Shown one piece after another: positions 5,699 to 60,906 of a stretch of DNA of 64,000 nt (position 1 is its first letter; the number at the start of each line of letters is the position of its first letter). This DNA is from Candidatus Clostridium eludens (lineage in GTDB: Bacteria; Bacillota; Clostridia; Clostridiales; Clostridiaceae), in NCBI RefSeq assembly GCF_045310515.1, contig NZ_JBJHZX010000011.1:1-64000 (forward strand). Direction: 5' to 3'. The notes under the pieces are model-generated. The model did not search any database. It saw nothing but the letters and a program-made list of their open reading frames with translations, and was not told where the DNA came from. A program made the position numbers and the translations under genes.

Positions 5699-6000
5699 TT
5701 AACTTCCTTCCAAAGTTTACTTTTTTATAACTCTTTTAAGGACTTAATAGTTTCTTCACACCACTCTCGACTTTTCTTTCAAGTCTTGTTCTTTCTATAG
5801 GTGAAAGTAATGGGGTTGATATTTGGAATAATAAGGATTTTTATTTATTTTGTATAAAATAGTGCTATTATACTGGGATAATGGTAAATTTAAATAAAGG
5901 ATAATGGTGTTGTATATAAGAATAAAAAATAAGCACTAATTAAAGGGAGCATTAACAAATAAATTGAGTTTTAGAGGCACAGAAAGGAATTATAATAAGT

Positions 6001-8360: not shown

Positions 8361-8840
8361 ATGCCAAAAAGTCTTATTGCATTTTTTTCATATTCGGGAA
8401 ACACAGAAGTTATTGCAAATACCATAAAAGAAAATGTTGGTGGTGAGCTTTTTAAAATAGAAACAATTGAATCTTATCCAACTAATTATAATGGAGTTGT
8501 GGATAAAGCTAGACAGGAACAAAATGCCCACTACAGGCCGGAACTAGCAGCAAAAGTCACTGATATGGATTCTTATGATATAATTTATATTGGTTATCCT
8601 AATTGGTGTAGTACAATACCAATGGCGGTCTTTACATTCTTGGAATCATATGATTTTTCTGGAAAAACGATTATACCATTCTGCACACATGGCGGAGGTG
8701 GCATGGGCAGAAGCGCATCAGATATCAAAAAACTTTGTCCGAATTCAAATGTCTTAGAAGGCGTAGCAATCAGCGGAAGTAGTGTTAATAAAGCAGGAAA
8801 AGATGTATCAGCATGGTTGAGTGAAATTGGTGTTATTTAA
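8361..8840 (+). CDS. flavodoxin-family protein
   Basis: FFSYSGNTE FMN-binding loop. RBS AGGAGG. Confidence 0.8.
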   Translation: MPKSLIAFFSYSGNTEVIANTIKENVGGELFKIETIESYPTNYNGVVDKARQEQNAHYRPELAAKVTDMDSYDIIYIGYPNWCSTIPMAVFTFLESYDFSGKTIIPFCTHGGGGMGRSASDIKKLCPNSNVLEGVAISGSSVNKAGKDVSAWLSEIGVI

Positions 8841-8862: not shown

Positions 8863-8994
8863 AGAACTTATCCAGACCCGTAGCACCTCTTATCCCCCCA
8901 CTTTGATAGAAAAGCAGAGAACCAAAATTTTTAATTTTGTGTGAATCGCTTTCACAGAGTGCGATGGGGGTTAGCAATGATAGCGATGGGATAA
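8863..8994 (+). repeat. copy A of a structured 3'-of-gene repeat family (core GAACTTATCCAGG.GC.TAGCA.TGCTTATC.CCC...TTAGCAATGGTAGCG....GGATAAA)
   Basis: Lies directly after the flavodoxin stop. Outer CTTATCC/GGATAAG complementarity. Carries a roughly 50-nt insertion relative to copies B to D. Confidence 0.7.
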
Positions 8995-10324: not shown

Positions 10325-10440
10325 TTTCTTATCAAGAGTAGTGGAGGGACTGGCCCTATGATGCTCGGCAACCTGAGTATGTTTATCAATATATTCAATG
10401 GTGCTAATTCCAGCAGATGAAATCTGAAAGATGAGAGACA
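10325..10440 (+). ncRNA. SAM-I (S-box) riboswitch aptamer
   Basis: TCTTATCAAGAGTAGTGGAGGGACTGGCCCTATGATGCTCGGCAACC...GGTGCTAATTCCAGCAGATGAAATCTGAAAGATGAGAGA matches the S-box consensus nearly position for position. Putative promoter TTGTCC-17-TAAAAT at 10285-10313. Confidence 0.9.
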
Positions 10441-10597: not shown

Positions 10598-10682
10598 AAG
10601 AACTTATTCAGGTGCCCAGTAGTGCTTATCTCCCATTTTCAAGAAGATGGAAGTGTTGGTAATAGCAGCGTTTGGATAAATA
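10598..10682 (+). repeat. copy B of the 3'-of-gene repeat family
   Basis: gaagaacttattcaggtgcccagtagtgcttatctccc...ggtaatagcagcgtttggataaa aligns with copies A, C and D. Confidence 0.7.
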
Positions 10683-10748: not shown

Positions 10749-10932
10749 AATTATCAAAGGCATATATACAAATTGTCTTATAAATATTCATAGTCAAATT
10801 GTGCTAGGAGGTGTTCTAATGTTAGAAGAAGATTTGATACAATAATAGGTTGTTAAGTTGAACTGCTTAAAAAAGATAATCTGTGTCAGAAAAATTATTG
10901 AATAAATAAAAGTGAAAAATAGGGGGAAAGAA

Positions 10933-12009
10933 ATGAAAAAAAATAAAAAGTTTAAATTATCTTACTATGTAATTATGTTAATTTTATCCACAGCATTTTT
11001 TGCGGCGTGCTCAAATACAACAACATCTAATCAAAAGTCTGATGCTGTAAATGAACAAAATGCTTCAAATAATAAGAATTCTGCTAGTTCTGGTGTTACT
11101 GATCCTATTGATGGGAAGTCTGTTCCTTCACTTAAAGGTAAGAAGATAGGAGTTGCCATAGAAGGAATAAGCAATAATTGGGAGAGGCAAGCTTATCAAG
11201 CTCAAATTGATCGAATAAAACAATTGGGGGGAACAGCCATTGAAGTTAATGGCGAGCGTAATACTCAAAAACATATTTCTGATATTGAGAATTTGATTAC
11301 TCAAAAGCCTGATGCAATCATTAAGCAACTTGGAGATGCAAAAGTATATGCACCTGTACTTAAGAAGGTACGTGCTGCAAATATTCCGCTTTTTACTGTT
11401 GATCATCCTAGTGAAGATAGTATTACTAATGCTTCATCAGATAATTATTTTATTGGTGAAGCATTAGCACGTAAAATGTTTGAAGATATAGGTGGAGAAG
11501 GTAAAATTGCAGTTTTTAATGGATTTTATGGAGAGAGAACTTTAGCTATTCGTTATGATGAAATGAAATATGTGGCTAAGGATTATCCTAAAATTCAGTT
11601 TATCCAACCTGAGCTGCAGGATATTATTGATGGTACTATAGAAGATTCAAAAAAGAAGGTTCAAGATTTGTTAATAAAGTATCCTAATAAGGGAGATTTA
11701 AAAGCTATCTGGGCAGGGTGGGATATTCCTGCAATTGGCGCTTCTCAGGCTTTAGAGGCAGCTGGGAGAACTGATATTAAAGTTTATGCGGTTGATGGAG
11801 ATCCTAGTGCACTGAAAGTACTTGCGGATAAAAATTCTCCTTTTGCTGCAGATATGGCCCAACAGCCTTATAAAATTGGTCAGGCTGCAGTGGATTCTGC
11901 TGCACGATATTTAAATGGTGAAACAGTACCAAGGTCAATTTACGTAGATCCATTACTTGTTACGAAGGATAATGTACAAGATGCAGAAAAGATTTTATTT
12001 AAAAAGTAA
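10933..12009 (+). CDS. ABC transporter substrate-binding lipoprotein (periplasmic-binding-protein type 1, RbsB/LsrB-like, CUT2 family)
   Basis: Signal peptide with lipobox (AFFAAC). Type-1 PBP fold. ATG at 10933 is preceded by AGGGGG, whereas the ORF track starts at an upstream GTG. Confidence 0.8.
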   Translation: MKKNKKFKLSYYVIMLILSTAFFAACSNTTTSNQKSDAVNEQNASNNKNSASSGVTDPIDGKSVPSLKGKKIGVAIEGISNNWERQAYQAQIDRIKQLGGTAIEVNGERNTQKHISDIENLITQKPDAIIKQLGDAKVYAPVLKKVRAANIPLFTVDHPSEDSITNASSDNYFIGEALARKMFEDIGGEGKIAVFNGFYGERTLAIRYDEMKYVAKDYPKIQFIQPELQDIIDGTIEDSKKKVQDLLIKYPNKGDLKAIWAGWDIPAIGASQALEAAGRTDIKVYAVDGDPSALKVLADKNSPFAADMAQQPYKIGQAAVDSAARYLNGETVPRSIYVDPLLVTKDNVQDAEKILFKK

Positions 12010-12090
12010 ATAAGAATATCAAGACAGAGGGTAGGAATATTTTCTATTCTCTGAATAATAATTTGTGTGTAAAGGAGGGTGTATTAGTTT

Positions 12091-13614
12091 ATGAATGAAA
12101 AATATATTTTAGAAATGATAAATATAGAAAAAGAATTTCCAGGTGTTAAGGCTCTTCAAAATGTTACTTTGCAAATACGTAATGCAGAAATACATGGTAT
12201 TGTAGGAGAAAATGGAGCAGGAAAATCTACATTGATGAAAATACTGGCAGGAATTTATAATCAAGATAGTGGACAAATAAAATTTGATGGTGAAATACAG
12301 GAACACTTAACAACAAAAATGGTAGAAAAGTTGAAAATTCATTTCATTCATCAGGAAAGGTATATAGTCCCTTACCTTACTGTAGCAGAATCTTTATTTT
12401 TGGGCATTGAACCTACACATTCTATATTTAAGTTGGTAAATAGAAAATCCTTAAAGCAAGAAGCTGAAAGACTTTTAAAAGAAAAATTAGGAATTTTTAT
12501 TCGGGGAAATAAATTAATGGGAGATTTAACTGTAGGAGAACAGCAATTAGTTCAAATTTGTCGTGCATTATTGCATAATCCTAAAGTAATTGTTTTTGAT
12601 GAGCCCACTGCTGTACTTTCAAAGCGTGAAGCAGATGGGTTATTTGAAATTATAAGAGAATTGGGAGAGAAAATTTCAATTATTTATATATCTCACTATT
12701 TAGGAGAAATTTTAAATCTGTGTCATAGAATTACGGTATTACGTAATGGTAGAAAAGTTAAAACTATGGATTCTAATGGATTGAATATTAAGGACATTGT
12801 TGTAATGATGATTGGACGAAACATAGAAAAACAGTTTCCGCCTAAAAGAAGGTGGAAGAAAGAAATCTTGTTGAATGTGAAAGGATTAACTCATATTACA
12901 CATTTTAAGGATGTTACTTTTCAAGTTCACGCTGGTGAAATAATTGGCATAACGGGTTTAATAGGTTCCGGACATATTGATGTAGGCAAAGCTATTTATA
13001 ATAATAATGGGATAATTAGTGGTACCATAGAATTTCAGTGCCATCAATTATCCAATAACAAACCTGAGAAAGCGGTGGCTTCTGGAATGGCATATGTACC
13101 AGAGGATAGACGAAATCTAGGTGTAATTCAAAACATGTCTGTGAGAGAAAATATAATGCTTTCGTACTTAAAAAGAGTAAGCAGAAAAGGTGTAATTAAT
13201 ACTAGGGATGAACATAATAAAGTGGACGATATAATAAAAAAATTAAGGATTAGTACTCCAAATCAAGAAATATCAGCAGGACTGCTGAGTGGTGGAAACC
13301 AACAAAAGGTTGTAATTGGAAAGTGGCTAAACAGTGAATCTAAGTTGTATATACTAAATGAACTAACTTCAGGTGTAGATATAGGTGCTAAGGTTGAAAT
13401 TTATTCTATCATAAATAATTTAGCCGGGAATGGTGCAGGAATAATTTTAATTTCACAGGACATACAAGAATTGGTTGGCTTATCTCATCGTATTTTTGTA
13501 ATGTACCGCGGCAAAATTGTAAATGAGTTTCATGGGAACAATACTACAACAGATGAAGTATTTGTTTCTATGATGGGGGGGAATAAAAATGACTCAGTTA
13601 ACATCAAACATTAA
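12091..13614 (+). CDS. ABC transporter ATP-binding protein with duplicated ATPase domains (RbsA/MglA-like)
   Basis: Walker A GENGAGKST. 507 aa with two ABC domains. Confidence 0.85.
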   Translation: MNEKYILEMINIEKEFPGVKALQNVTLQIRNAEIHGIVGENGAGKSTLMKILAGIYNQDSGQIKFDGEIQEHLTTKMVEKLKIHFIHQERYIVPYLTVAESLFLGIEPTHSIFKLVNRKSLKQEAERLLKEKLGIFIRGNKLMGDLTVGEQQLVQICRALLHNPKVIVFDEPTAVLSKREADGLFEIIRELGEKISIIYISHYLGEILNLCHRITVLRNGRKVKTMDSNGLNIKDIVVMMIGRNIEKQFPPKRRWKKEILLNVKGLTHITHFKDVTFQVHAGEIIGITGLIGSGHIDVGKAIYNNNGIISGTIEFQCHQLSNNKPEKAVASGMAYVPEDRRNLGVIQNMSVRENIMLSYLKRVSRKGVINTRDEHNKVDDIIKKLRISTPNQEISAGLLSGGNQQKVVIGKWLNSESKLYILNELTSGVDIGAKVEIYSIINNLAGNGAGIILISQDIQELVGLSHRIFVMYRGKIVNEFHGNNTTTDEVFVSMMGGNKNDSVNIKH

Positions 13615-14584
13615 AATATCAAAACGTACTAATATTTTATTAAAATACAGTGGATATATAGTATTCCTTGTTTTAGCTATATTTTTCTCAATTATTTCAC
13701 CATCTTTTTTAAAATTACAAAATTTAATCAATATCTTAAATCAATGTAGTGTCTTAGCAATTGCTGCAGCTGGAATGACTATTATATTAATTGGCGGAGG
13801 TACTCATGTTATTCAAGGAGGAATTGATTTATCATTAGGAAATAATCTTGCAATTATTAGTACTATTACAGCAGTGTTAATAAGTAAGAACTATTCTTTT
13901 TTCACTATACTGGTGATAATTGTATCATGCAGTTTATTTATTGGTTTGATAAATGCTGTTATGATTGTAAGGCTTAGGATAATACCCTTGCTTGCAACAT
14001 TGTCAATGATGTATTTATTACAAGGGGTAGAACTTTTAATTTCTGGCAACAAACCAATAAATGTATCAAACCCTATGTTGAGTTTTCTTTCAAATGGTAA
14101 TTTTTTATTTTTGCCAAGCTCTGTATGGGTATTTATATTGGTAGAAATAATATTATATCTACTTTTAAATCGGTCAGTCTTTGGAAATTGGATAAATGCT
14201 GTAGGTGGAAATCCTAAGGCAGCGATGGTATCAGGTATTAATGTGAATTTTATTTTATCAGTAACCTATATTATTGCCTCAATTGTGACTCTAATTGCTA
14301 GTTTATTAGCTACAGCTAGGTTATCCGGCAGTGTACCAGGTACGGGAGATGTTATGTTGTTTGATATATTACTTGCAGCTTATATGAGTGCTGTTTTTTC
14401 ACGGACTTTTATACCTAATATTCCGGGAGCGATTCTTAGTTCATTATTTGTTGAAATGCTTACAAATGGGTTTACTTTAATAAATGTCCCCACATACTGG
14501 GTCTATGCTGTTAAAGGAGCATTAATATTATTAACTGTAGCAATTAGCAGCAAACAGCAAAGGAGGTTGGAGCAATATGTCTAA
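13589..14584 (+). CDS. ABC transporter permease (RbsC-like)
   Basis: Polytopic membrane protein. Overlaps the ATPase gene by 26 nt. Confidence 0.8.
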   Translation: MTQLTSNIKISKRTNILLKYSGYIVFLVLAIFFSIISPSFLKLQNLINILNQCSVLAIAAAGMTIILIGGGTHVIQGGIDLSLGNNLAIISTITAVLISKNYSFFTILVIIVSCSLFIGLINAVMIVRLRIIPLLATLSMMYLLQGVELLISGNKPINVSNPMLSFLSNGNFLFLPSSVWVFILVEIILYLLLNRSVFGNWINAVGGNPKAAMVSGINVNFILSVTYIIASIVTLIASLLATARLSGSVPGTGDVMLFDILLAAYMSAVFSRTFIPNIPGAILSSLFVEMLTNGFTLINVPTYWVYAVKGALILLTVAISSKQQRRLEQYV

Positions 14585-15605
14585 ATCATCAATTAAAAAT
14601 TTATCAAACTATAGTAATGGTGTAAGATTGAAAAATAGTTTAGTACGCTATAGTACCATTATAGCATTAGTGATATTGATTATGGGACTTTCTATTGTTA
14701 CTCCCAAATTTCTTAATCCCGGTAACTTAGTAAATATTTTGAGTCAATCATCTATACTTGCACTGGTAGCAGTAGGATTATGTTTAGTTATTGCTACCGG
14801 AGGACTGGACCTTTCTGTAGCAGTAGCATTTGATGTGGGGGGGATGGTATCAGTATTGTTATTACAAGGAGGATTTGGATGGTTAACTGCTATTATTTTT
14901 GGACTGCTTGCAGGAGTTGTCATAGGAGTTTTTAATAGCTTTCTAGTATTAAAGATTAAAATTACAGTTTTTTTAGCTACATTAGGAACTCTTTTTATTG
15001 TACAGAGCATTGAAAGAATTATTACTGAAGGAGGAACACCGGTATATTTACCAGATATGGATGAAGTCTTCAAATTTTTGGGACGTGGAAGTGTATTTGT
15101 CATACAAAAAGGAAGTCAAATCGATTTTAAATTTTCCATAGTTATTGCTCTTCTTGTAGCTTTATTTATACACCTGCTGCTTAAGCGAACTGTGTTTGGC
15201 AGATATTTATACGCAATTGGATCTCAAAAAGAAGCAGCAGAACTTTCTGGTGTTCCAGTTGGCAGATATACTCTCTATGCTTTTATACTTTGCAGTGTAA
15301 TATGTTCATTTGCAGGTATTATTGCTTCGTCCGCTTTGACATCATATGTCCCTCTCAGTGGTAATTACTATTTGATGGACGGCATAGGTGCTGTTTTTAT
15401 CGGGAGTACTTTAAATGAAAAAGGTTTTGTTGATATACCAGGTACATTAATTGGAGTGTTGTTTTATGGAATTGTATCTAATGGACTTAGTCTGGTAGGG
15501 ATCAATTTTTACTGGCAAAGTGTAGCTCATGGACTTCTCATGTTTTTTATATTAATATTGAATTCATATAGATTAATTTCTATTAAAAAGATATGTCTTA
15601 GTTAG
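14577..15605 (+). CDS. ABC transporter permease (RbsC-like), second copy
   Basis: Polytopic membrane protein. Overlaps the preceding permease gene by 8 nt. Confidence 0.8.
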
Positions 15606-15657
15606 ATTATTGTATTTGTTTTACGTGATATTGCTATTATATAAGGAGGTTAAATTA

Positions 15658-16143
15658 ATGGGAAAAATTGTTTTTGCAGGTGGTTGTTTCTGGGGGGTTG
15701 AAGCCTATTTTAATACAGTAAAGGGAGTGCTTTTTACTAAAGTTGGATATGCTAATGGTAATACGGAAAATCCAACATACGAACAAGTATGTAAACATAC
15801 AACAGGCTTTGCAGAAGCTTGCTATATAGAATATGATGACAGCATTATAACACTAGAACAATTACTTGGTGACTATTGGAAAATAGTTGATCCTACAATA
15901 AAAGATAGGCAGGGTCACGATATAGGAAATCAGTATCGCACAGGTATTTATTATTTTAATGAAAAAGATGTTGAAATAATAAAAAAATCTAGAGAGAGTG
16001 AACAAGAGAAATATGAGAAAGTTATTGTAACTGAAATAGAACCTCTAAAAAATTTTTATGATGCAGAGGAATATCATCAAAAATATTTAGATAAAAATCC
16101 AAATGGGTACTGTCATATTCCAAAAGAATTATTAATAAAATGA
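15658..16143 (+). CDS. msrA: peptide methionine sulfoxide reductase MsrA
   Basis: [18 protein letters not shown] active-site motif. RBS AAGGAGG before ATG 15658. Confidence 0.9.
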
Positions 16144-16157
16144 GGCTATTCTTAGAT

Positions 16158-16262
16158 TCAAGTGGGGGATAAGCACTGCTGCGCACCTGGATAAGTTCTT
16201 CTCCTAAAGGATAACGTATTCTAAGTGCTAAAGACACTAAGAATACTGTTAATAAGGTTCAG
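16158..16262 (-). repeat. copy E (reverse orientation, truncated) of the 3'-of-gene repeat family
   Basis: The reverse complement is nearly identical to 44338-44440 (gaaccttattaacagtattcttagtgtctttagcacttagaatacgttatcctttagg.gaagaacttatccagg.gcg.agcagtgcttatcccccactt). Sits directly 3' of the minus-strand gene 16338-17480. Confidence 0.75.
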
Positions 16263-16337: not shown

Positions 16338-17480
16338 TTAGTTACCTGTATTTTCGGTGGTTCCACCTGTTGATGTATTTGTATTTCCAGTGGTTCCATT
16401 TGTTGATGTGTTCGTGTCTGTATTTTTAGTGGTTCCATCTGTGGATGTATTTTCATCTGCATTCTTAGTTGTTTCGTCTGTAGATGTATTTTTATCTGTA
16501 TTATCAGTGGTTCCATCTGTGGATGTCTTTGTATCTGTATTTTGGGTGTTTCCGTCTGTAGATGTTTTTGTATCTGTATTTTTGGTAGTTCCATCTGTAG
16601 ATGTATTTGTATTTTTGGTATTTTCATCTGTGGATGTCTTTGCATTCCCATTTTTAGTTGTTCTACCTGTAGATGTATTTTTACCTGATGAACCCGTTGC
16701 ATCAGTGGATTGTTCTTGAACAGTGGTTTTTATATCGGGAGTTTGTGTATTAGTAGGTATTCTTTTAAAATAAGATTTTACTAAAACACCGGCAATCATA
16801 ACTAAAATGATTGATACAATTGTTATTATTGCCTTTTTACTCTTACTAGGTCTCTTATTTCTATTGGGTACTTTTCTATTTCTTTTATTTATTGTTTTTT
16901 CAGTCCTTGATACTTTATCCATAACTATTGTAAAGTCATCTTTTTTATTAGGAACCATTGTCTTAGTTTTTTTCGTTCTGTTTAAGATTATTTCATTTAT
17001 ATTTTTAGGTATATTAAACAATAAGGCTAGTATCCCATTTTGTTCTACAGAGTCTATCTCCTTAAAATTTTCAGGTGATCTAATTGTAATAACAGGCTTA
17101 TTATACACTCCATGTTGATTTTCTACATATAATGTAACTGAAAATTTATCACCCTTACCTAAAAAAGGTATATAGATATCCAAAATGCTATCTTTTATTG
17201 AAGAATCAAATTTTAAACCTTTTGTTATTTTGGCATCTGTAATCCTTAAGTTATTTTGTGGACTTTGTATATTTAGAGTTAGTTCATGAATTATTTTGTT
17301 TGATATATTGCTAACAGTAATAATGTATGCACGAATCTTTTTACTGTTTATTTCCATAGGTATAGCATTGCCTATGTTACATAGTATTCTGGGTGCTAAA
17401 TTTTTATAATAATCTAACAATAAACCAGATATAAATGATATTATTATAGTTATAATTGCAGTTTTAATAATGCTTATCAT
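16338..17480 (-). CDS. membrane-anchored hypothetical protein with a C-terminal Thr/Asn/Asp-rich 13-aa tandem repeat array
   Basis: Two TM helices. Repeats of the TSTDGTTKNTDTK type are encoded by a 39-bp tandem repeat at about 16350-16700. Start is probably the internal ATG, preceded by AAGGAAG. Confidence 0.55.
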   Translation of the reverse strand: MISIIKTAIITIIISFISGLLLDYYKNLAPRILCNIGNAIPMEINSKKIRAYIITVSNISNKIIHELTLNIQSPQNNLRITDAKITKGLKFDSSIKDSILDIYIPFLGKGDKFSVTLYVENQHGVYNKPVITIRSPENFKEIDSVEQNGILALLFNIPKNINEIILNRTKKTKTMVPNKKDDFTIVMDKVSRTEKTINKRNRKVPNRNKRPSKSKKAIITIVSIILVMIAGVLVKSYFKRIPTNTQTPDIKTTVQEQSTDATGSSGKNTSTGRTTKNGNAKTSTDENTKNTNTSTDGTTKNTDTKTSTDGNTQNTDTKTSTDGTTDNTDKNTSTDETTKNADENTSTDGTTKNTDTNTSTNGTTGNTNTSTGGTTENTGN

Positions 17481-18367
17481 ATTAATTTTCGCTTCCTTAT
17501 TTTTTACCATTATACAACTAAATTATAAAGTAGATAGATATTTGTGTCAAATTTAAAGATTGGTTACTATGAAATGTAATGATTGAATATCTCACTTATA
17601 TTCAAGGAATGCTTCAAAGTATAAAGAAGTGTAATTATGAAAGTTATAGTTTAACTTAATAATAATTTTAAACTTGAAATTAACTTCTAGATTGGTTTCA
17701 GGTTTTATTTTGGTTTGTAAAATATAAAAAGCAAAGGGGCATAAAGATTTACCTTACACCAATATAAATAATTTAATATCTAGTTATAATCCCTTAAATC
17801 ATATTAAATATGATTTTTAAAACCATAACTAAACAGTTCACCACCCATATTAATGATTCGTTCGACCATACAACATACCTACACAGCTATATACAACCCT
17901 CTAGCTGTATATAACCATCTCAGCACCCTGGATGATCTTCGCTGGACCCTATACAATAATTTGGGATCCCATTATAATCAACATAATTAACCATAATGAA
18001 ACCTTTCATCAACATATAAGATCTACCTTAAACCGTATATACAAGATTTTTAACTCTTAATGTAAATCCTACAAAAATTTGTGATTAAACATATTTTTAT
18101 TATCTACTCTACTAAAATTATTAAAAAAACATATACAGTTTAGGGCTAGCTTATATATGCTTTTTAGCATATATAAGCTTTGGCTCAATCCTCATGTCCT
18201 TTACATTATTTAATATGCCCTAGCATAAAAAAATAATTCAAAAATTTTTATGTAATTTAATCCAAATATTTAAAACTTACTATTTAGCAGGAATTTTTTC
18301 TTTTTTAGAGAATTTTAATGTTATATAATTGCAAGTACAATGGCGTTGGTAATCTAGTTTAAAAGGG

Positions 18368-19207
18368 GTGCTTAATTTGAAATTTGATTGTGAACTTGTT
18401 GGTAAAGTGGGTTCAATGGCGTTAATCAGAAAAGGTGAATATGATATAGACTATAATGTTTTTAGCAGATTGGGAAAAGAACTCTTTCCTGGCTGCGTAT
18501 GGATAAGCTCTGGAGCTGGCGAGATTGGCCGTATAGATTATATGAAACGAAATAATGGTGAAGAAATTGAAAATAATTATGATGAAGATATTAAATCATA
18601 TTATGCTTCTCAAGGACAGGCTGTACTTATGGAGAATTATAGACGATTTATTAATCAAGATTATTCTGTAAGACAAATTTTAGTTGAACACTATCACTTT
18701 AATGATCCAGAAAAAAGACAGTTTATCAGAAAACTATTACTTCAATCGGTAAAGCAAAATGCAATACCAATTATAAATTATAACGATTCTGTAAGCAGTG
18801 AGGAAATACGAAAATTAGAACTTTATAATTTAAAACTAAATCACAATAAGGTAGTTGAATGTATTGATAACGATGAAACTGCTTCTCAGGTATCCCTATT
18901 AGTGAAGTCAAAATATTTAGTGATATTAACATCAGAGGTAGGATTACTAAAAAATGCAAAAGATCCTTCAACATTAATAAGTGGAGTAGAAGGTAAAAAT
19001 ACCTATGAATTAATAGAACATATAAGGGAAGTACAAGATTATTGTAGTGGTGCAAGTAGAAAAGGTGCAAATGGTATGAGAGCCAAGCTGGAATATTTAA
19101 TTGAGCCTGTAAAGCAAGGTACTACAGTTATAATAGGCCATTCAAAATATAGGCTTTCAGATTTGATAAATGGGAATGTAGAAAGAACTATTTTTCGTGT
19201 GAGATAA
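18368..19207 (+). CDS. amino-acid kinase family protein, glutamate-5-kinase-like and lacking a PUA domain
   Basis: KVGSMAL, DNDETASQVSLLV, ILTSEVGLL and GANGMRAKLE match ProB signatures. GTG start with RBS AAAAGGGG. Confidence 0.6.
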   Translation: MLNLKFDCELVGKVGSMALIRKGEYDIDYNVFSRLGKELFPGCVWISSGAGEIGRIDYMKRNNGEEIENNYDEDIKSYYASQGQAVLMENYRRFINQDYSVRQILVEHYHFNDPEKRQFIRKLLLQSVKQNAIPIINYNDSVSSEEIRKLELYNLKLNHNKVVECIDNDETASQVSLLVKSKYLVILTSEVGLLKNAKDPSTLISGVEGKNTYELIEHIREVQDYCSGASRKGANGMRAKLEYLIEPVKQGTTVIIGHSKYRLSDLINGNVERTIFRVR

Positions 19208-19518
19208 TTACAATGTTATTTTATCCACAAGTTATAAACAATTTATCCACATTATCCACAATTCATTATTTTTATATCTCTTATCTATTTTTCTATTTTA
19301 TATAAAAGAGTATATCTGAAAATTAAGTATTAACGTAAAAAATGTATACGTTAAGCAGATATACTCATAGCAAGTAATTAGTTGGGGTTAAATTGCCCTA
19401 TATATACTTATATGCCTCAACTTTATATTTATACGTTTTTTAATATCTTAACTTTTATTCACAATATATTATTTTATTTATAATATATATATTGTAAGTA
19501 GATTCACGGAGGTATTTT

Positions 19519-19860
19519 ATGGATACTAGTTCTTCTAGTGACAACATCAATAAAGAAAATGCTGAAAATTTATATGAATTTGAACAGCCTATATATTGTC
19601 CATATTATCGACCAATAAATTATGAATACGTAGATGCCATAGATACAGATTCAGATGATGAGTATTTTGACGATAATGATTTTGATGATTTTGATCTTGG
19701 ATATAGGCACGGAAGTGGTAGAAGGCGCAGACGCAGAAGACACAGACGTAGGAGGCATAGACCTTTATCTTGCCATCATAAATCTTCTCGTTACAGACCT
19801 TGCCCATTCTACTCAAGACCATTTGAACTATATTATGGATGTTGTGATGACTGGTATTAA
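19519..19860 (+). CDS. 113-aa protein with an acidic patch, a poly-arginine tract and a Cys/Tyr-rich tail
   Basis: Strong RBS GGAGG. DDEYFDDNDFDDFD, then RRRRRRRHRRRRHR, then CPFYSRPFELYYGCCDDWY. Confidence 0.6.
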   Translation: MDTSSSSDNINKENAENLYEFEQPIYCPYYRPINYEYVDAIDTDSDDEYFDDNDFDDFDLGYRHGSGRRRRRRRHRRRRHRPLSCHHKSSRYRPCPFYSRPFELYYGCCDDWY

Positions 19861-19861
19861 A

Positions 19862-19944
19862 AACTTATCCAGGCGCATAGTACTGCTTATCTCCCGCTTT
19901 GAAGAAGGTGGGAGTATTAGCTAATTACTGCGTTGGGATAAGGG
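19862..19944 (+). repeat. copy C of the 3'-of-gene repeat family
   Basis: Begins 2 nt after the stop of the 19519-19860 ORF. acttatccaggcgcatagtactgcttatctcccgctt...gcgttgggataag. Confidence 0.7.
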
Positions 19945-20024
19945 TATTTTACTAAATCGATTGCTGTTAGTATAATTCATAATTACTTAAATGTACAGTT
20001 TCCTCGTATTAAGGCAAAAAGGTG

Positions 20025-20053
20025 TTGACAAAGAAATGTATACAGTTTAGAAT
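20025..20053 (+). promoter_or_regulatory. sigma-A-type promoter TTGACA-17-TAGAAT
   Basis: Consensus -35, a 17-nt spacer, and a near-consensus -10. Confidence 0.65.
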
Positions 20054-20059
20054 TAAATT

Positions 20060-20370
20060 CATCAAAGAAAAAATGATGATGGAGACAAGTAAAAAAAATA
20101 TTTCACCAACAGTGAGCTTGGGGATAGTGTGAACCCAGTGGCAGAGTTTTTTTGAATAACACTCCGGAGATGCAAACTGAAATATTTGTAGACTGTACTT
20201 TAAACAAAATGTTTGATACAGGTTCAGTAGATAAAGTAGGGGAGTCGTATTCCATGCGTTATTTGGATACCAGTAGTAGCTGGAAAGAGACCAAATATGG
20301 TAAATTAGGTGGCACCACGGATAAGCGTCAATTCGTCCTATTATTAAGACGAATTGACGCTATTTTTATA
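20060..20370 (+). ncRNA. T-box riboswitch leader of asparagine synthetase
   Basis: T-box-like AAATTAGGTGGCACCACGG at 20302-20320, followed by a perfect terminator gcgtcaattcgtc/gacgaattgacgc plus TATTTTTA. The roughly 330-nt leader is open in the asnB frame, which explains the artificially long ORF-track call. Confidence 0.6.
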
Positions 20371-20388
20371 TCTAAGGAGGAATATAAT

Positions 20389-21978
20389 ATGTGTACAATT
20401 ATGTGTTATACGGGAACAGACATAAAACATGAAAAATTTGTAGGGGCATTGCAGAGAACTGAATCCAGGGGACCAGATATGATGGGGATTCTCACTTTAC
20501 CATCTGGTATTTTGGGGTTCCAAAGACTCTCTATTATGGATTTAAGTTTTAGCGGAATGCAGCCATTTACAAGGAAAATGGATGCCTCCATATGTAACGG
20601 TGAAATTTACGGCTTTCGTGAAATTAAAAAGGAACTAATAGAAAAGGGACATAAGTTTATTTCAGATAGTGATTGTGAAATATTACTTCCTATGTATTAT
20701 GAATATGGACTAGATATGTTTTCAAAATTAGATGCAGAATATGCAGCGATTATCTACGATGGAGAAAAGGACAGTTACATTGCAGCACGGGATCCCATTG
20801 GAATTCGTCCTTTATTCTATGGCTATTCTGGAACAGGTAAAATCATATTTGCAAGTGAGGCAAAAAATTTAATTGGTCTTACAGATAAGATTATAGCGTT
20901 TCCACCAGGACATTATTATGCTGACGGTAAATTCACATGTTATTGTGATATTGCAGCAACAGAGGGTGATTATTGCAAGGACGACTTGAAAGTTATTTGT
21001 AGTGAAATTCATGATAAATTGGTAACTGGTATAGAAAAACGTATGGATGCTGATGCTCCTGTAGGTTTCTTGTTAAGTGGTGGTTTAGACAGCTCATTAG
21101 TATGTGCAGTCGCTCAAAAAATGTATCCTGAAAAACCAATTAGAACATTTTCTATAGGTATGACTGAAGATGCAATTGACTTAAAATACGCACAGGAAGT
21201 TGCAGATTACATTCACAGTGATCATACCGTTGTGTACATGATAAAAGAAGAAGTGCTTGCATCACTTGATGAGGTTGTTAAAATTCTTGGAACATATGAT
21301 ATTACTACAATAAGAGCAAGTATTGGAATGTATTTGATTTGCAAGAAAATACATGAGATTTCTGATATCAGAGTGCTTCTGACTGGTGAAATTTCTGATG
21401 AATTATTTGGCTATAAATATACTGATTTTGCCCCAAGTGCAGAAGAATTTCAAAAGGAATCACAAAAGAGAATACGGGAGCTTTATATGTACGATGTACT
21501 TCGTGCAGACCGCTGCATCAGTTCAAATTCTTTAGAAGCAAGGGTACCATTTGGAGATTTAGATTTTGTAAAGTATGTTATGGCCATCGACCCTGAAAAG
21601 AAACTAAACAAATACAATATGGGTAAATACCTTTTGAGACATTCATTTGAAGGTGATTATCTGCCACGTAATATTTTATATCGTGAAAAAGCAGCATTTA
21701 GTGATGCTGTAGGGCATTCTATGGTAGACTATTTAAAGGAATATGCAGAAACATACTATGGTGATGAAGAATTTGAAAAATCATGTGAAAAGTATAAATA
21801 TCACTCTAAACCATTCACAAAAGAATCATTATTATACAGAGAAATTTTTGAAAAATACTATCCAGGACAAGCGGAAATGATAGTAGGATTCTGGATGCCA
21901 AACAAAGCATGGGAGGGCTGTGACGTAGATGATCCTAGTGCCAGAATATTATCCAATTATGGTGCCAGCGGTAAATAA
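20389..21978 (+). CDS. asnB: asparagine synthetase, glutamine-hydrolysing (class II GATase N-terminal Cys plus PP-loop SGGLDSS)
   Basis: MCTIMCYTG gives a Cys2 nucleophile. LLSGGLDSSLV PP-loop. RBS AAGGAGG before ATG 20389. Confidence 0.85.
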   Translation: MCTIMCYTGTDIKHEKFVGALQRTESRGPDMMGILTLPSGILGFQRLSIMDLSFSGMQPFTRKMDASICNGEIYGFREIKKELIEKGHKFISDSDCEILLPMYYEYGLDMFSKLDAEYAAIIYDGEKDSYIAARDPIGIRPLFYGYSGTGKIIFASEAKNLIGLTDKIIAFPPGHYYADGKFTCYCDIAATEGDYCKDDLKVICSEIHDKLVTGIEKRMDADAPVGFLLSGGLDSSLVCAVAQKMYPEKPIRTFSIGMTEDAIDLKYAQEVADYIHSDHTVVYMIKEEVLASLDEVVKILGTYDITTIRASIGMYLICKKIHEISDIRVLLTGEISDELFGYKYTDFAPSAEEFQKESQKRIRELYMYDVLRADRCISSNSLEARVPFGDLDFVKYVMAIDPEKKLNKYNMGKYLLRHSFEGDYLPRNILYREKAAFSDAVGHSMVDYLKEYAETYYGDEEFEKSCEKYKYHSKPFTKESLLYREIFEKYYPGQAEMIVGFWMPNKAWEGCDVDDPSARILSNYGASGK

Positions 21979-22683: not shown

Positions 22684-23487
22684 ATGGGAAAAAAATTAAT
22701 TTACAAATACAATTTAAAACCAGGAAAGCTAATGAAAAGCGATTTATTGTTTCATAAAGAAGTAAAAAAGACACAACCAGTACCTGCAAGTGCAGATTTG
22801 AGATCAGGATATGGTCCAATAAAAGATCAGGGTGAGTTAGGAGCTTGCACAAGTTTTAGTGCTTGTAGTGTATTAGAATATCTATTAAATAAAGATGTCT
22901 CTTTGTCAGAACTTTATTTTTATTATCAAGAGCGTAAAGAAGATGGAGATGTTAATGAGGATGCAGGGAGTACAATCTCTAGATCTGCTATAGTTGCAAC
23001 TACTATAGGTACTTGTACGGAAACTTTGGATCCTTATGCTATAAGTAACTTTACCAATATTCCTACTCCAATTATGGATGCAGATGCTCCAAAGCACAAA
23101 GCAGTTAAAAGATATGCAGTTATAACTATAGATGATATTTTATATTCAGTAGGTGTATTAAAAAGACCTGTATTAATAGGTATAGATGTATATGAAAGCT
23201 TTGAGAATATAAGTTCTGATGGATATGTACCAATACCTCAACCTGAAGAGCAACTTTTAGGTGGTCATGCTCTTAATATTTGTGGCTACTTCTATAAGAA
23301 TAATAATGTGTTTGAAAAAGTAGAAAATGAATTTGAAAGGATATTTTCTAAGACTAAATACAATGGCTTATATTTTATAGTTAGAAATAGCTGGGGAAAT
23401 ACTTTTGGTGATAAAGGATATATTTATATGCCAGCACAATACTTGCTTAAATATTCATCTGACTGGTGGCATATTGATTTAAAATAA
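22684..23487 (+). CDS. papain-family (C1A) cysteine peptidase with no signal peptide
   Basis: DQGELGACTSFSA (catalytic Cys region), GGHALNICGY (His) and NSWG (Asn) motifs. RBS AGGAGG. Confidence 0.8.
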   Translation: MGKKLIYKYNLKPGKLMKSDLLFHKEVKKTQPVPASADLRSGYGPIKDQGELGACTSFSACSVLEYLLNKDVSLSELYFYYQERKEDGDVNEDAGSTISRSAIVATTIGTCTETLDPYAISNFTNIPTPIMDADAPKHKAVKRYAVITIDDILYSVGVLKRPVLIGIDVYESFENISSDGYVPIPQPEEQLLGGHALNICGYFYKNNNVFEKVENEFERIFSKTKYNGLYFIVRNSWGNTFGDKGYIYMPAQYLLKYSSDWWHIDLK

Positions 23488-23830: not shown

Positions 23831-24466
23831 ATGAAAATTTATGATATTTTATTTGGTCCAAGACCAAAATCTATTTCAGCAATAATAGAAGAGGGAAATT
23901 TGGATGAACTTAAAATTTTTATAAAAAATGGAGGTGATGTTAATGTAAAATGTGATGATAAGAGCCTGCTTCATTTTGTCATAGATAATTGTGAAAACAA
24001 TTATTTTGAAGTAATAGAACTTTTAATCAATAATGGTGCAGACATCAACAGCCATGAAAGTTATTTAAAAGAAACACCTTTGCATAGAATATGTGCAAGA
24101 ATAAAACCTAAAATTGATGTTGTGCAATTATTATTAGACAGAGGAGCTAAAGTAAATGCTGAAAATATATCAGGTAAAACCCCTATATTTTACTGCAGCT
24201 TTAGTTATTCAGTAGAACTTTTAAACCTTCTTGTTGTTAAATATGGAGCAGATATCAAACACACTGACAAATATAACAATACTCTTTTACATGATGATTA
24301 TTTAAATAATAATACTGAAACTTTTGAAGATTTTTTAAAAGTTCTTATCTCACTTGGTTTTAATATAAACTCAAAAAATAATGCAGGACATACTCCACTG
24401 TATATGTGTAAAAATAAATATATTGAAGGTATATTTATAAAATACGGTGGAAAGATAAGTTTTTGA
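23831..24466 (+). CDS. ankyrin-repeat protein
   Basis: Repeated NGADIN/GAKVN..G.TPL motifs. Confidence 0.7.
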   Translation: MKIYDILFGPRPKSISAIIEEGNLDELKIFIKNGGDVNVKCDDKSLLHFVIDNCENNYFEVIELLINNGADINSHESYLKETPLHRICARIKPKIDVVQLLLDRGAKVNAENISGKTPIFYCSFSYSVELLNLLVVKYGADIKHTDKYNNTLLHDDYLNNNTETFEDFLKVLISLGFNINSKNNAGHTPLYMCKNKYIEGIFIKYGGKISF

Positions 24467-32748: not shown

Positions 32749-32801
32749 GTCTACATTGAATCACATGTATCAGGTTATGGTACTTATAAGTTATTTTGGT
32801 C

Positions 32802-33740
32802 TTAAATTTCTTTCATTGCAGAATCAAATGCATTTTGAATAGCTGTTTCCTGGTCTTGAGTAATTGTTCCAGCAGATACCAAACTATCTAAAGCATTTGC
32901 AAATGGGTTGTTTGTTCTGTCCGTTTGTGACTGAGATGACTTCACCGCAGAATCAAATGCACTTTTAATAGCTGTCTCTTGATCCTGTGTGATTGTTCCA
33001 GCAGATACTAAACTATCTAGAACGGATGTGCCAGGGTCTCCAGTTGAGTTCTGTGGCTGGGTGGAGTTCATAGCAGATTTAAATGCATTTTGAATAGCTG
33101 TTTCCTGGTCTTGAGTAATTGTTCCAGCAGATACCAAACTATCTAAAGCATTTGCAAATGGATTATTTGTTTTATCAGTTTGTGCCTGAGGTGACTTCAT
33201 AGCAGAATCAAATGCACTTTTAATAGCTGTCTCTTGATCCTGTGTGATTGTTCCAGCAGATACTAAACTATCTAAAACGGATGTGCCAGGGTCTTCAGTT
33301 GAGTTCTGTGGCTGGGTGGAGTTCATAGCAGATTTAAATGCATTTTGAATAGCTGTCTCTTGGTCTTGAGTAATTGTTCCTGAAGATACTAGACTATCTA
33401 ATGGATTTGTAGGTCTTCTATTGTATACTGCTGATGGTTGGGTTGACTGGTTTCTAGATTGAAAAATACTAGTTATAGTATTTGCTTGATCCTGAGTAAT
33501 TGTTCCTGCTGACACCAAACTATCTAAGGAACTACTGATGCTGTTGGCAATATTTGTTTCTCTCGGCATTAAGTTATTTGCTGTTTGCATCCCACATTGA
33601 CTTAATTCTATTGAATCTTGTCCATATTTTTTATAATCATTTATTTCTGTATAGTTGTCACCATCTGTATTTTCAGTATTGTTTTGAGTATATAAACTAT
33701 ATAAATTACTTGTGCTTCTAGTATCATATATTGTGTTCAT
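32802..33740 (-). CDS. hypothetical protein with six copies of a 42-aa repeat (LDSLVSAGTITQDQETAI..AF.SAM)
   Basis: Alternating A and B repeat types, encoded by long near-identical DNA repeats of about 250 bp. No signal peptide. RBS GAGGAGG. Confidence 0.6.
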   Translation of the reverse strand: MNTIYDTRSTSNLYSLYTQNNTENTDGDNYTEINDYKKYGQDSIELSQCGMQTANNLMPRETNIANSISSSLDSLVSAGTITQDQANTITSIFQSRNQSTQPSAVYNRRPTNPLDSLVSSGTITQDQETAIQNAFKSAMNSTQPQNSTEDPGTSVLDSLVSAGTITQDQETAIKSAFDSAMKSPQAQTDKTNNPFANALDSLVSAGTITQDQETAIQNAFKSAMNSTQPQNSTGDPGTSVLDSLVSAGTITQDQETAIKSAFDSAVKSSQSQTDRTNNPFANALDSLVSAGTITQDQETAIQNAFDSAMKEI

Positions 33741-44337: not shown

Positions 44338-44482
44338 GAACCTTATTAACAGTATTCTTAGTGTCTTTAGCACTTAGAATACGTTATCCTTTAGGGGAAG
44401 AACTTATCCAGGCGCGTAGCAGTGCTTATCCCCCACTTTGGAGAAGTTGGGTGTTAGCAATGGTAGCGTTGTTCGGATAAAA
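44338..44482 (+). repeat. copy D (longest) of the 3'-of-gene repeat family
   Basis: Contains both the 60-nt extension shared with copy E and the full core shared with copies A, B and C. Confidence 0.75.
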
Positions 44483-60283: not shown

Positions 60284-60540
60284 TTACATAATTAAAAAAA
60301 GTTGAGGATTAACAATGAGCAAATGAAAATTATGGTTTTAAGTAGAGACGGAACAGCTATTAAATAGTATTTACATAAGAAGTAAAGATACGCAAAGGAT
60401 GTCGCCAACATTTCCGACAAAACCCATGCTAAGGAATGAAATTTATTAATATTTTATAATTCACCCCGGTTAAGCTATAGTGAGGCATTATATACAATGG
60501 TATAAATAACTTAATAAATATGAATTTGAGGTGAGCTGCT

Positions 60541-60906
60541 ATGGACAAATATACAAGAGAAGAATTGTTAGAAGCCCTACCAATTGTATCTTCAACTATC
60601 AGTAAATGTGAAAAAATACAGCTAAAATTTGCGGAGGGTACCTCTCAACACACACTCCTTAAGAACAGGATAAAAGCAATGTATATTTCAAAATCATTGA
60701 TAACAGATGAAAATGTTATGGACAAATATACAAAAGAAGAATTGATAGAAGCACTACGCCCCGTATCTTCAATTATCAGCAAATGTGAAAAAGCACAGCT
60801 AAAATTTGCGGAGGGTACCTCTCATCACACACGCTTTAAGAACATAATAAAAGCGATGTATATTTCAAAGTTATTAATAACAAATGGAATTAGTAAAAGA
60901 GGTTAA
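60541..60906 (+). CDS. hypothetical protein made of two tandem 57-aa repeats
   Basis: MDKYTREELLEALPIVSSTISKCEKIQLKFAEGTSQHT.. repeats as MDKYTKEELIEALRPVSSIISKCEKAQLKFAEGTSHHT... The DNA halves are about 85% identical. Confidence 0.5.
   Translation: MDKYTREELLEALPIVSSTISKCEKIQLKFAEGTSQHTLLKNRIKAMYISKSLITDENVMDKYTKEELIEALRPVSSIISKCEKAQLKFAEGTSHHTRFKNIIKAMYISKLLITNGISKRG

Follow-up and report, generated by a model that had tools for sequence, protein, structure and literature searches.

What does a small clostridial open reading frame (ORF) encode when its product turns abruptly from an acidic patch to 14 consecutive basic residues, and is it a gene at all? The ORF lies at positions 19519-19860 of a 64,000-nucleotide (nt) stretch of DNA (the window), from contig NZ_JBJHZX010000011.1 of Clostridium sp. 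WILCCON 0269, "Candidatus Clostridium eludens", an organism from Singapore soil whose nearest type strain is C. kluyveri. Its product is identical to the hypothetical protein ACJDU8_08830 (WP_406791783.1). Judged by its conservation and the selection acting on it, ACJDU8_08830 is a genuine gene, and transcription of its family is most likely the work of sigma-K RNA polymerase, acting in the mother cell late in sporulation. Whether the product is a disordered component of the spore coat or exosporium is, in our estimate, about an even call. The gene and its upstream elements are laid out as follows.

19460-19463, plus strand: predicted -35 element of the sigma-K type, CACA, with the invariant AC at 19461-19462 (10-locus alignment)
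19479-19487, plus strand: homolog of the -10 element, TATAATATA, with T for the first C, 16 nt from the AC
19490-19518, plus strand: conserved short leader, a TTGTAAATAAATTTAyGGAGGTA block that includes GGAGG at 19508-19512
19519-19860, plus strand: coding sequence, 113 amino acids (aa) and a stop codon, ATG start; ACJDU8_08830 / WP_406791783.1
19519-19632, plus strand: N-terminal conserved module, residues 1-38, MDTSS..N..E.EN.YeFEqPIYCPYY...Y (family alignments)
19633-19695, plus strand: acidic block, residues 39-59, DAIDTDSDDEYFDDNDFDDFD; every member has a block of this kind
19720-19761, plus strand: basic tract, residues 68-81, preceded by a conserved GYRxG motif
19762-19857, plus strand: C-terminal tail, residues 82-113, ending in the DDWY terminus of the family (alignment)

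An earlier note on this DNA, made from the letters alone, had described a consensus ribosome-binding site (RBS), an acidic patch, a poly-arginine tract and a Cys/Tyr-rich tail, and each of these is where it was said to be. GGAGG lies 6 nt ahead of the ATG of the 113-aa ORF, the acidic patch DDEYFDDNDFDDFD spans residues 46-59 (19654-19695), the 14 consecutive basic residues are RRRRRRRHRRRRHR, and CHHKSSRYRPCPFYSRPFELYYGCCDDWY forms the C-terminal end of the protein. The acid-to-base switch that the note had pointed out far exceeds chance, with a sequence charge decoration of -5.39 against -0.83 +/- 0.60 in 500 shuffles of the same residues (z = -7.6). The note had also placed the protein in no characterized family, and profile searches of Pfam, NCBIfam, PHROGs and the PDB bear this out. 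The 113-aa protein matched no Pfam family at E <= 1, including PF00269 (small acid-soluble spore protein, SASP), its NCBIfam matches were noise far under the cutoff, the PHROGs search gave only noise (E >= 0.018), and the PDB profile search returned nothing below E = 0.05. Hidden Markov models of known spore-coat, SASP and exosporium proteins (Coat_F, CotJ, Coat_X, CotH, PF00269, SspH and others) gave no significant match, and a tblastn search of 50,697 phage and 72,556 plasmid records found no phage- or plasmid-borne homologs. A literature search by the accession numbers of family members retrieved a genome announcement only.

Relatives do exist, and they are few. An exhaustive phmmer search over 1.84 billion cluster representatives gave seven matches, the query and six relatives, and profile searches of 5.8 billion proteins gave 13-14 clusters, all from Clostridium wherever the source names an organism; over all searches, the family comes to about 15 clusters. 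Scanning 185,579 species genomes for the conserved leader DNA added four more family loci (two in C. moutaii, one in C. luticellarii and one in a Clostridium metagenome-assembled genome). The named sources are C. kluyveri, C. ljungdahlii, C. autoethanogenum, C. luticellarii, C. moutaii and other Clostridium spp., while none of the phmmer or profile searches returned a family member from C. difficile. Three paralogs are carried by the Ca. C. eludens genome, at least two by C. moutaii and at least two by one metagenomic sample; two paralogs bear the UniRef name "Spore coat protein", a naming that is probably automatic. By these searches, the ORF is one of three paralogs of a small uncharacterized family limited to the C. 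kluyveri/ljungdahlii/autoethanogenum/luticellarii/moutaii group. In nine pairwise comparisons (synonymous divergence, dS, 0.7-2.0), the ratio of nonsynonymous to synonymous substitution (dN/dS) was 0.16-0.44, and 0.16-0.32 for the window copy against its homologs, which indicates purifying selection on this reading frame. The earlier note had named two findings that would refute its reading, a lack of homologs together with a lack of expression, and a strain-specific microsatellite in a non-coding region; what was found instead is a set of Clostridium relatives and a coding frame under selection with a basic tract in every member.

Family members are 88-117 aa long and have five modules in common, namely an N-terminal module, an acidic block, a GYRxG(R)P motif, a basic tract and a tail. 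The N-terminal consensus is M(D/S)xSxS..N..E.EN.Y.FE.PIYCPY(Y/C)SMPY, in which P28 and Y29 are invariant and C27 is nearly so, and the family alignments show no hydrophobic stretch like that of a signal peptide in this module. The acidic block contains many aromatic residues (DDEY..D.D..DF.DDF). Across members, the longest basic run is between 5 and 17 residues, with Arg runs of up to 16; two C. moutaii paralogs have Arg runs of 8 and 16, the exact make-up of the tract differs even between close relatives, and one paralog (P0007) has a dispersed, Lys-rich tract in place of Arg. In the window copy, the tract is encoded by mixed codons (AGA AGG CGC AGA CGC AGA AGA CAC AGA CGT AGG AGG CAT AGA) in about the background proportions of the window, and the Arg-coding DNA has weak periodicities of 15 nt x 3 (Tandem Repeats Finder, 76% matches) and 6 nt. 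Read together at the level of codons and residues, the basic tract is maintained as a feature of the protein and is not a pure microsatellite, and its variable length suggests occasional slippage inside a selected coding tract. The usual tail reads RPFPYHHSM, followed by a Pro/aromatic hydrophobic segment of 10-12 residues (e.g. PFIPFVFPVIMY) and the end (Y)DDWY(W)(Y). The window protein has five Cys in total, and the CCDD motif of its tail also occurs in P0007. A frameshift was considered as the source of the divergent tail of the window copy and was rejected, as the other reading frames give no family-like tail.

Charge segregation is strong in every one of the 18 members scored (z -3.6 to -14.5 for sequence charge decoration against shuffles), and 17 of them have a net charge of -5 to 0, the window protein being at -3. 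Members contain 12-22 aromatic residues per ~100 aa. Counts of acidic and basic residues are weakly correlated (r = 0.54, uncorrected for phylogeny), a value on which we do not rely. AlphaFold2, run with a 24-sequence alignment, gave a predicted local distance difference test (pLDDT) score of 57, a predicted template-modeling (pTM) score of 0.12 and no secondary structure, so the protein is predicted to be intrinsically disordered. With no predicted fold, segregated charges and a near-zero net charge, the window protein as modeled fits the physical class of disordered block polyampholytes.

When and where such a protein would be made is suggested by the DNA upstream of it. A unit of ~75 nt is conserved, reading ATT(C/A)AC-N16-CATAgTATA, then TTGTAAATAAATTTAyGGAGGTA and the ATG; the promoter signature can also be written TTCACAA-N15-CATAGTATA. 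The promoter block is present in all 12 scored family loci and in two further loci from the leader scan. ATT(C/A)AC is invariant in the 10-locus alignment; the invariant positions of the promoter are AC and ATA, and the spacer is variable. The -10 element reads CATAnnnTA/G in 11 of the 12 scored loci, the window copy being the exception with TATA instead of CATA. The promoters of sigma-E and those of sigma-K have a -10 box in common and are distinguished by the -35, which is ATA in the former and AC in the latter (Saujet et al., PMC3789822). Weight matrices for the -35 were derived from 47 sigma-E and 23 sigma-K mapped C. difficile promoters (Table S7, PMC3789822), and in leave-one-out discrimination they assigned 98% of the sigma-E and 100% of the sigma-K promoters correctly. 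On the sigma-K matrix, the family -35 elements score 6.7-7.7 bits (training mean 5.7), with the exception of the C. kluyveri locus L005 at 2.9, and at best they reach <= 1.0 bit as sigma-E (training mean 4.2); the window copy scores 6.7 bits on the sigma-K matrix and -0.3 on the sigma-E matrix. The -35/-10 spacing of 18-19 is in the modal range of mapped promoters, and the same -10, CATAGTAT, occurs in the mapped C. difficile sigma-K promoters of CD0896, CD1063.2, CD1067 and yabG/CD3569 (PMC3789822). The earlier note had proposed looking upstream for sigma-K or sigma-E motifs, and by the C. difficile matrices the conserved block is classed as sigma-K and not sigma-E. Because the AC/-10 block is conserved, the -35 matrices classify it and the spacing is modal, transcription of the family most likely falls to sigma-K RNA polymerase and takes place late, in the mother cell, with a predicted start near 19492 in the window copy. 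Searching the window with the pattern mACm-N15/16-CATAnnnTA gave three matches against 2.45 expected, which is no enrichment; a motif scan of a single sequence is thus uninformative, and weight is placed only on cross-locus conservation and matrix scoring.

The sigma-K-type promoter, together with a small, disordered product that lacks a signal peptide and is rich in Tyr, Cys, Asp and basic residues, fits a late mother-cell protein of the spore coat or exosporium, a reading to which we give roughly equal chances of being right and wrong. Under this reading, the gene would be a monocistronic unit transcribed late in sporulation by sigma-K RNA polymerase in the mother cell, and its disordered product, having no signal peptide, would pass from the cytoplasm of the mother cell to the forming spore and be deposited there as part of the coat or exosporium. 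The acidic block would neutralize the poly-Arg tract in cis, keeping the protein near net zero, soluble and off nucleic acids while it is in the mother cell. At the spore surface, pairing of acidic and Arg blocks between molecules, or binding of Arg to anionic surface components, would then give a dense electrostatic assembly. The YCPYY/C motif, the Pro/aromatic tail and the DDWY terminus could dock the protein to partners, and the same motifs could be a source of Tyr and Cys for oxidative cross-linking.

A more specific form of this idea is speculative, and we think it rather unlikely. The family would be a kinase-independent counterpart of CotG/CotH, a self-neutralizing "electrostatic zipper" in which the acidic block acts as an in-cis chaperone of the poly-Arg tract and intermolecular pairing at the spore surface leads to a coacervate-like condensation of the outer layer that is fixed by Tyr/Cys cross-links. 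The length of the Arg tract (8-16, through slippage) and the number of paralogs might then tune surface charge and permeability in the C. kluyveri-C. ljungdahlii clade.

Several observations weigh against a coat or exosporium role, for the family or for this copy. The promoter matrices derive from C. difficile and not from the C. kluyveri/ljungdahlii clade, and mapped C. difficile sigma-K promoters include those of the non-coat genes glmS, murE, dpaA and sleC (PMC3789822). The window neighborhood is one of housekeeping and not of sporulation (ABC transporter, MsrA, histidine kinase and others), and the charge balance is loose, the C. moutaii protein of locus L016 having a net charge of -10. 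The -10 element of the window copy begins with T, a base that one of the 23 mapped sigma-K promoters of C. difficile has there (13 have C and 9 have A), and the promoter can be read as a weak sigma-A-like TTCACA-17-TAATAT with 9 of 12 positions matched. The hydrophobic tail segment is replaced by the more polar, Arg/Cys/Tyr-rich SRYRPCPFYSRPFELYYGCC, and since the segment typical of the family is lost, the window copy may be a diverging or weakly expressed paralog.

Among the alternatives, one keeps the late mother-cell timing and gives the protein a non-structural role, as a chaperone or counter-ion for a coat component or a polyanion (RNA, polyphosphate or teichoic-type polymers), or as a mother-cell lysis factor whose Arg tract and short hydrophobic tail would perturb membranes once the acidic block is removed. 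It draws on the same sigma-K promoter evidence as the coat reading, sigma-K regulons include non-coat genes, and the order of the blocks, acidic first and then cationic and hydrophobic, is reminiscent of the pro-forms of cationic peptides. The hydrophobic segment, however, is ~10-12 residues long and Pro-rich, too short to span a membrane, and is missing in the window copy; no protease or partner gene is conserved nearby, and the high Tyr/Cys content with two or three paralogs per genome would be more typical of structural coat proteins. We regard this role as unlikely.

A second alternative accepts the family and takes the window copy to be a decaying or re-wired paralog, poorly expressed or under a vegetative-type promoter, that has lost the family function. 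The T that replaces C at the start of the -10 box would fit such a copy, as would the possible sigma-70-like promoter, the divergent tail without its hydrophobic segment and the repeat element inserted right after the stop codon, where no terminator was detected. Against this, the ORF is intact and ends in a native DDWY terminus, its dN/dS is as low as that of other pairs, the -35 box, leader and RBS are intact, and 10 of the 23 mapped C. difficile sigma-K promoters also lack C at the first -10 base. Decay of this copy has, to our mind, a small chance of being the explanation.

The earlier note had offered two functional options, a spore coat or exosporium protein and a protamine-like condenser of nucleic acid; the former has gained indirect but specific support from the conserved sigma-K-type promoter, and the latter is disfavored. 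A protamine-like or SASP-like factor would compact the forespore chromosome, and, if exposed, a run of 14 basic residues, or the up to 16 Arg in succession of C. moutaii, would be an avid binder of nucleic acid. The conserved -35 AC, however, is that of sigma-K in the mother cell and not of forespore sigma-F/G, and the chromosome is packaged in the forespore. SASP genes in the same loci stand under a different upstream motif, family members have net charges of -10 to 0, unlike the polycationic protamines and SASPs, there is no match to PF00269 or any other Pfam family, and one paralog has a dispersed, Lys-rich tract only. We judge a condenser improbable.

A precursor of a secreted peptide, of a ribosomally synthesized and post-translationally modified peptide (RiPP) or of a bacteriocin, perhaps tied to the adjacent kinase-like gene or asparagine synthetase homolog, would agree with the small size, with the Cys residues (including CPYC in some members) and with the fact that asparagine synthetase homologs include lasso-peptide cyclases (a weak NF033535 match was seen). 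This is very improbable and was rejected on the comparative data, as the gene downstream encodes an authentic AsnB under T-box control, neither neighbor accompanies the gene elsewhere, the ten loci compared have unrelated neighbors with no conserved maturation, transport or immunity genes, and the N-terminus is not hydrophobic in the manner of a signal or leader. Least credible, and refuted by the comparative data, is a spurious ORF in which a non-coding microsatellite expansion happens to read as poly-Arg, for against the weak DNA periodicities and a tract length that varies between strains and paralogs stand homologs with the same full-length architecture, dN/dS values of 0.16-0.44, a strong RBS and promoter that are conserved, mixed Arg codons and a paralog with Lys for Arg.

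The genes flanking family members differ in every one of the ten loci compared, from which the family gene appears to be a mobile, monocistronic unit. In the window, the earlier note had placed the gene between a ProB-like kinase and a T-box-controlled asnB. The second identification stands: a T-box leader lies at 20067-20343 (RF00230, 95.9 bits), and the downstream gene is a true AsnB (NF006949, 625.7 bits against a cutoff of 499). The first does so in part, as the upstream gene (18368-19207) belongs to the amino-acid-kinase family (PF00696, E = 3e-11) and is ProB-like at best (63.6 bits against the TIGR01027 cutoff of 186). A functional tie to either neighbor was considered and rejected, synteny with them being found in no other locus; cotH, too, is not adjacent to the window gene, and no conserved neighbor accompanies the family elsewhere. 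In some family loci, spore genes occur within a few kb (SASP, Coat_F, SspH and a Cu/Zn-superoxide-dismutase-like gene), which is circumstantial; at the C. ljungdahlii locus L004, SASP, Coat_F and SspH genes all lie within 5 kb. The SASP genes of L004 and L005 have an upstream motif unlike the family promoter. The Cu/Zn-superoxide-dismutase-like gene (PF00080), ~3 kb from the family gene in two species, has a conserved sigma-K-like motif of its own, GTAAC-N17-CATAACAT (L001, ~5915-5969; L004, ~8520-8575, minus strand).

Downstream of the gene, the TTG-initiated asnB ORF (20152-21978) overlaps the T-box leader, and the AsnB profile aligns from residue 80; from these two observations, the true asnB start is probably an ATG near 20389. 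Beyond asnB are a homolog of C1 papain-family cysteine peptidases (22684-23487) and an ankyrin-repeat protein (23831-24466), which are somewhat unusual for a Clostridium chromosome. At E <= 1, Rfam returned only a meaningless plant-microRNA match over 19200-20100. Two further features border the gene.

19308-19366, plus strand: imperfect palindrome of ~60 nt, GAGTATATCTG ... CAGATATACTC, ~150-210 nt upstream of the ORF
19859-19945, plus strand: intergenic repeat copy that abuts the stop codon, a neighbor of the gene and no demonstrated part of it

The palindrome folds at -18.3 kcal/mol (z = -4.5 against shuffles), and its block is common to L010, L001 and, in part, the C. kluyveri locus L005. 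As a conserved structure it was rejected, since it folds well but its pairing is not kept in L001, where it is broken by inspection. The palindrome may be left over from a duplicated unit or may serve as a regulatory site, and is probably dispensable. After it comes a second conserved block, TATATGC.TCAACTTTATATTTATAC, that is also found in L010, L001 and part of L005.

The earlier note had reported that a copy of a 3' repeat element directly follows the gene, and it indeed begins at the stop codon (19859 onward), one of five copies in the window against 0.01 expected. The repeat is ~80 nt long and oriented (8865-8985, 10601-10680, 16197-16110 on the minus strand, 19862-19945 and 44401-44480). 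Its 5' core of ~45 nt reads AAGAACTTATCCAGGCGC.TAGCA.TGCTTATCCCCCAC, and its variable 3' half closes a predicted outer stem (…GCGTT.GGATAAR) around an inner hairpin. Four of the five copies share the orientation of a gene and lie just 3' of it, and one lies between a S-adenosylmethionine (SAM) riboswitch and its downstream gene; the copy at 8865 has an internal insertion, and that at 16197 lacks the 3' half. The repeat has no Rfam match and no terminator-like site with a T-run. It was rejected as a part of the family gene, being absent from all 23 related Clostridium loci, and it is not a canonical terminator.

Elsewhere in the window, the SAM riboswitch (10326-10437; RF00162, 87 bits) lies upstream of an ATP-binding cassette (ABC) transporter operon in the region 10912-16143, made up of Peripla_BP_4, ABC_tran, two BPD_transp_2 genes and, last, a methionine sulfoxide reductase (PMSR). 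A 390-aa ORF (16338-17510, minus strand) with no Pfam domain encodes a hydrophobic segment followed by a C-terminal half of about eight 13-aa (39-nt) tandem repeats, TSTDGTTKNTDTK, and its product is perhaps a repeat protein, rich in Thr and Asn, that is located at the surface or anchored in the membrane. Within the minus-strand ORF 32802-33740, six tandem units of 126-129 nt (32797-33527; 67-95% identity to the reference copy) encode protein repeats of ~42 aa, and at 60537-60889 is a direct repeat of two adjoining ~176-nt copies with 86% identity.

What emerges here, as far as sequences can tell, is a clade-restricted, compositionally extreme, probable coat protein family in which acidic and poly-Arg blocks are balanced in cis. 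The spore coats of Clostridium sensu stricto are poorly cataloged, including those of the industrial acetogens and chain-elongators C. ljungdahlii, C. autoethanogenum and C. kluyveri, in which most lineage-specific coat proteins carry the label "hypothetical"; the family offers a concrete, testable coat candidate with a clear promoter signature. Its architecture bears on the question of how highly charged, disordered coat proteins are kept harmless in the mother cell and yet condense on the spore. If the coat reading is correct, the family would supply a minimal natural block polyampholyte for studies of electrostatically driven assembly, and could be put to use in spore-surface display or as a sporulation reporter in gas-fermenting clostridia. 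Should it be merely another minor coat protein, its interest would be modest, as small lineage-specific coat proteins are expected.

Set beside known systems, the family has a long, uninterrupted Arg-rich tract in common with protamines, alpha/beta-type SASPs and Chlamydia Hc1. Those proteins, however, are net polycationic and act on the chromosome, and SASPs are made in the forespore under sigma-G, whereas the proteins of this family are neutral or acidic overall, stand under a promoter of the mother-cell type and give no PF00269 match. CotC and CotU of B. subtilis are small, Tyr/Lys/Asp-rich outer-coat proteins that are expressed late in the mother cell and are candidates for Tyr cross-linking. 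They resemble the family in length (~70-110 aa) and in very high Tyr, Asp and basic content, but their charges are interspersed and their basic residues are Lys; library searches gave no homology, the comparison being made without direct pairwise alignment. As a physical class, disordered block polyampholytes with segregated charges undergo complex coacervation, and the family resembles them in its extreme charge segregation, its predicted disorder and its many aromatic residues; this is a likeness of class and not of homology.

CdeC and CdeM of C. difficile, with the sigma-K coat genes cotA, cotE and yabG (PMC3789822), are clostridial like the family, and a sigma-K-type promoter is common to both (-35 AC, -10 CATAgTAT). 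CdeC and CdeM are likewise Cys-containing and lineage-specific, and the spore-surface location that is known for them is predicted for the family. They differ in having no acidic or poly-Arg blocks, and sequence similarity to them was not seen, the family having no Pfam or NCBIfam match at E <= 1.

CotG of B. subtilis, the functional analog closest to the family, offers the comparison that bears most on the proposed mode of assembly. It is a disordered coat protein with a positive central region between partner-binding termini; its charge must be balanced through phosphorylation by CotH for assembly, and unphosphorylated CotG aggregates in the mother cell (PMC9765600). Principles of phase separation have been proposed for coat proteins rich in Arg, Lys and Ser (PMC7821199). 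CotG-like outer-coat proteins (PMC9765600; PMC7821199) are, like the family, small to medium in size and, as is predicted for the family, disordered, CotG being made in the mother cell. In both, a strongly positive central region lies between N- and C-terminal modules, CotG needing this charge neutralized for assembly, and in both, members are set by architecture rather than by sequence homology. CotG-like proteins have been described in Bacillus and not in Clostridium, and no sequence similarity of the family to CotG was found. In CotG, the center is built of Lys-, Arg- and Ser-rich tandem repeats of several residues each, while in the family it is a near-homopolymeric Arg/His run without Ser; and CotG, at a net +57, is neutralized in trans by CotH phosphorylation, while the family is near zero through an acidic block in the same chain. 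By this comparison, the family lacks the features that define CotG-like proteins (tandem repeats, net positive charge and linkage to cotH), but may work in a related mode, with the counter-charge that a kinase supplies in Bacillus CotG/CotH built into the chain itself.

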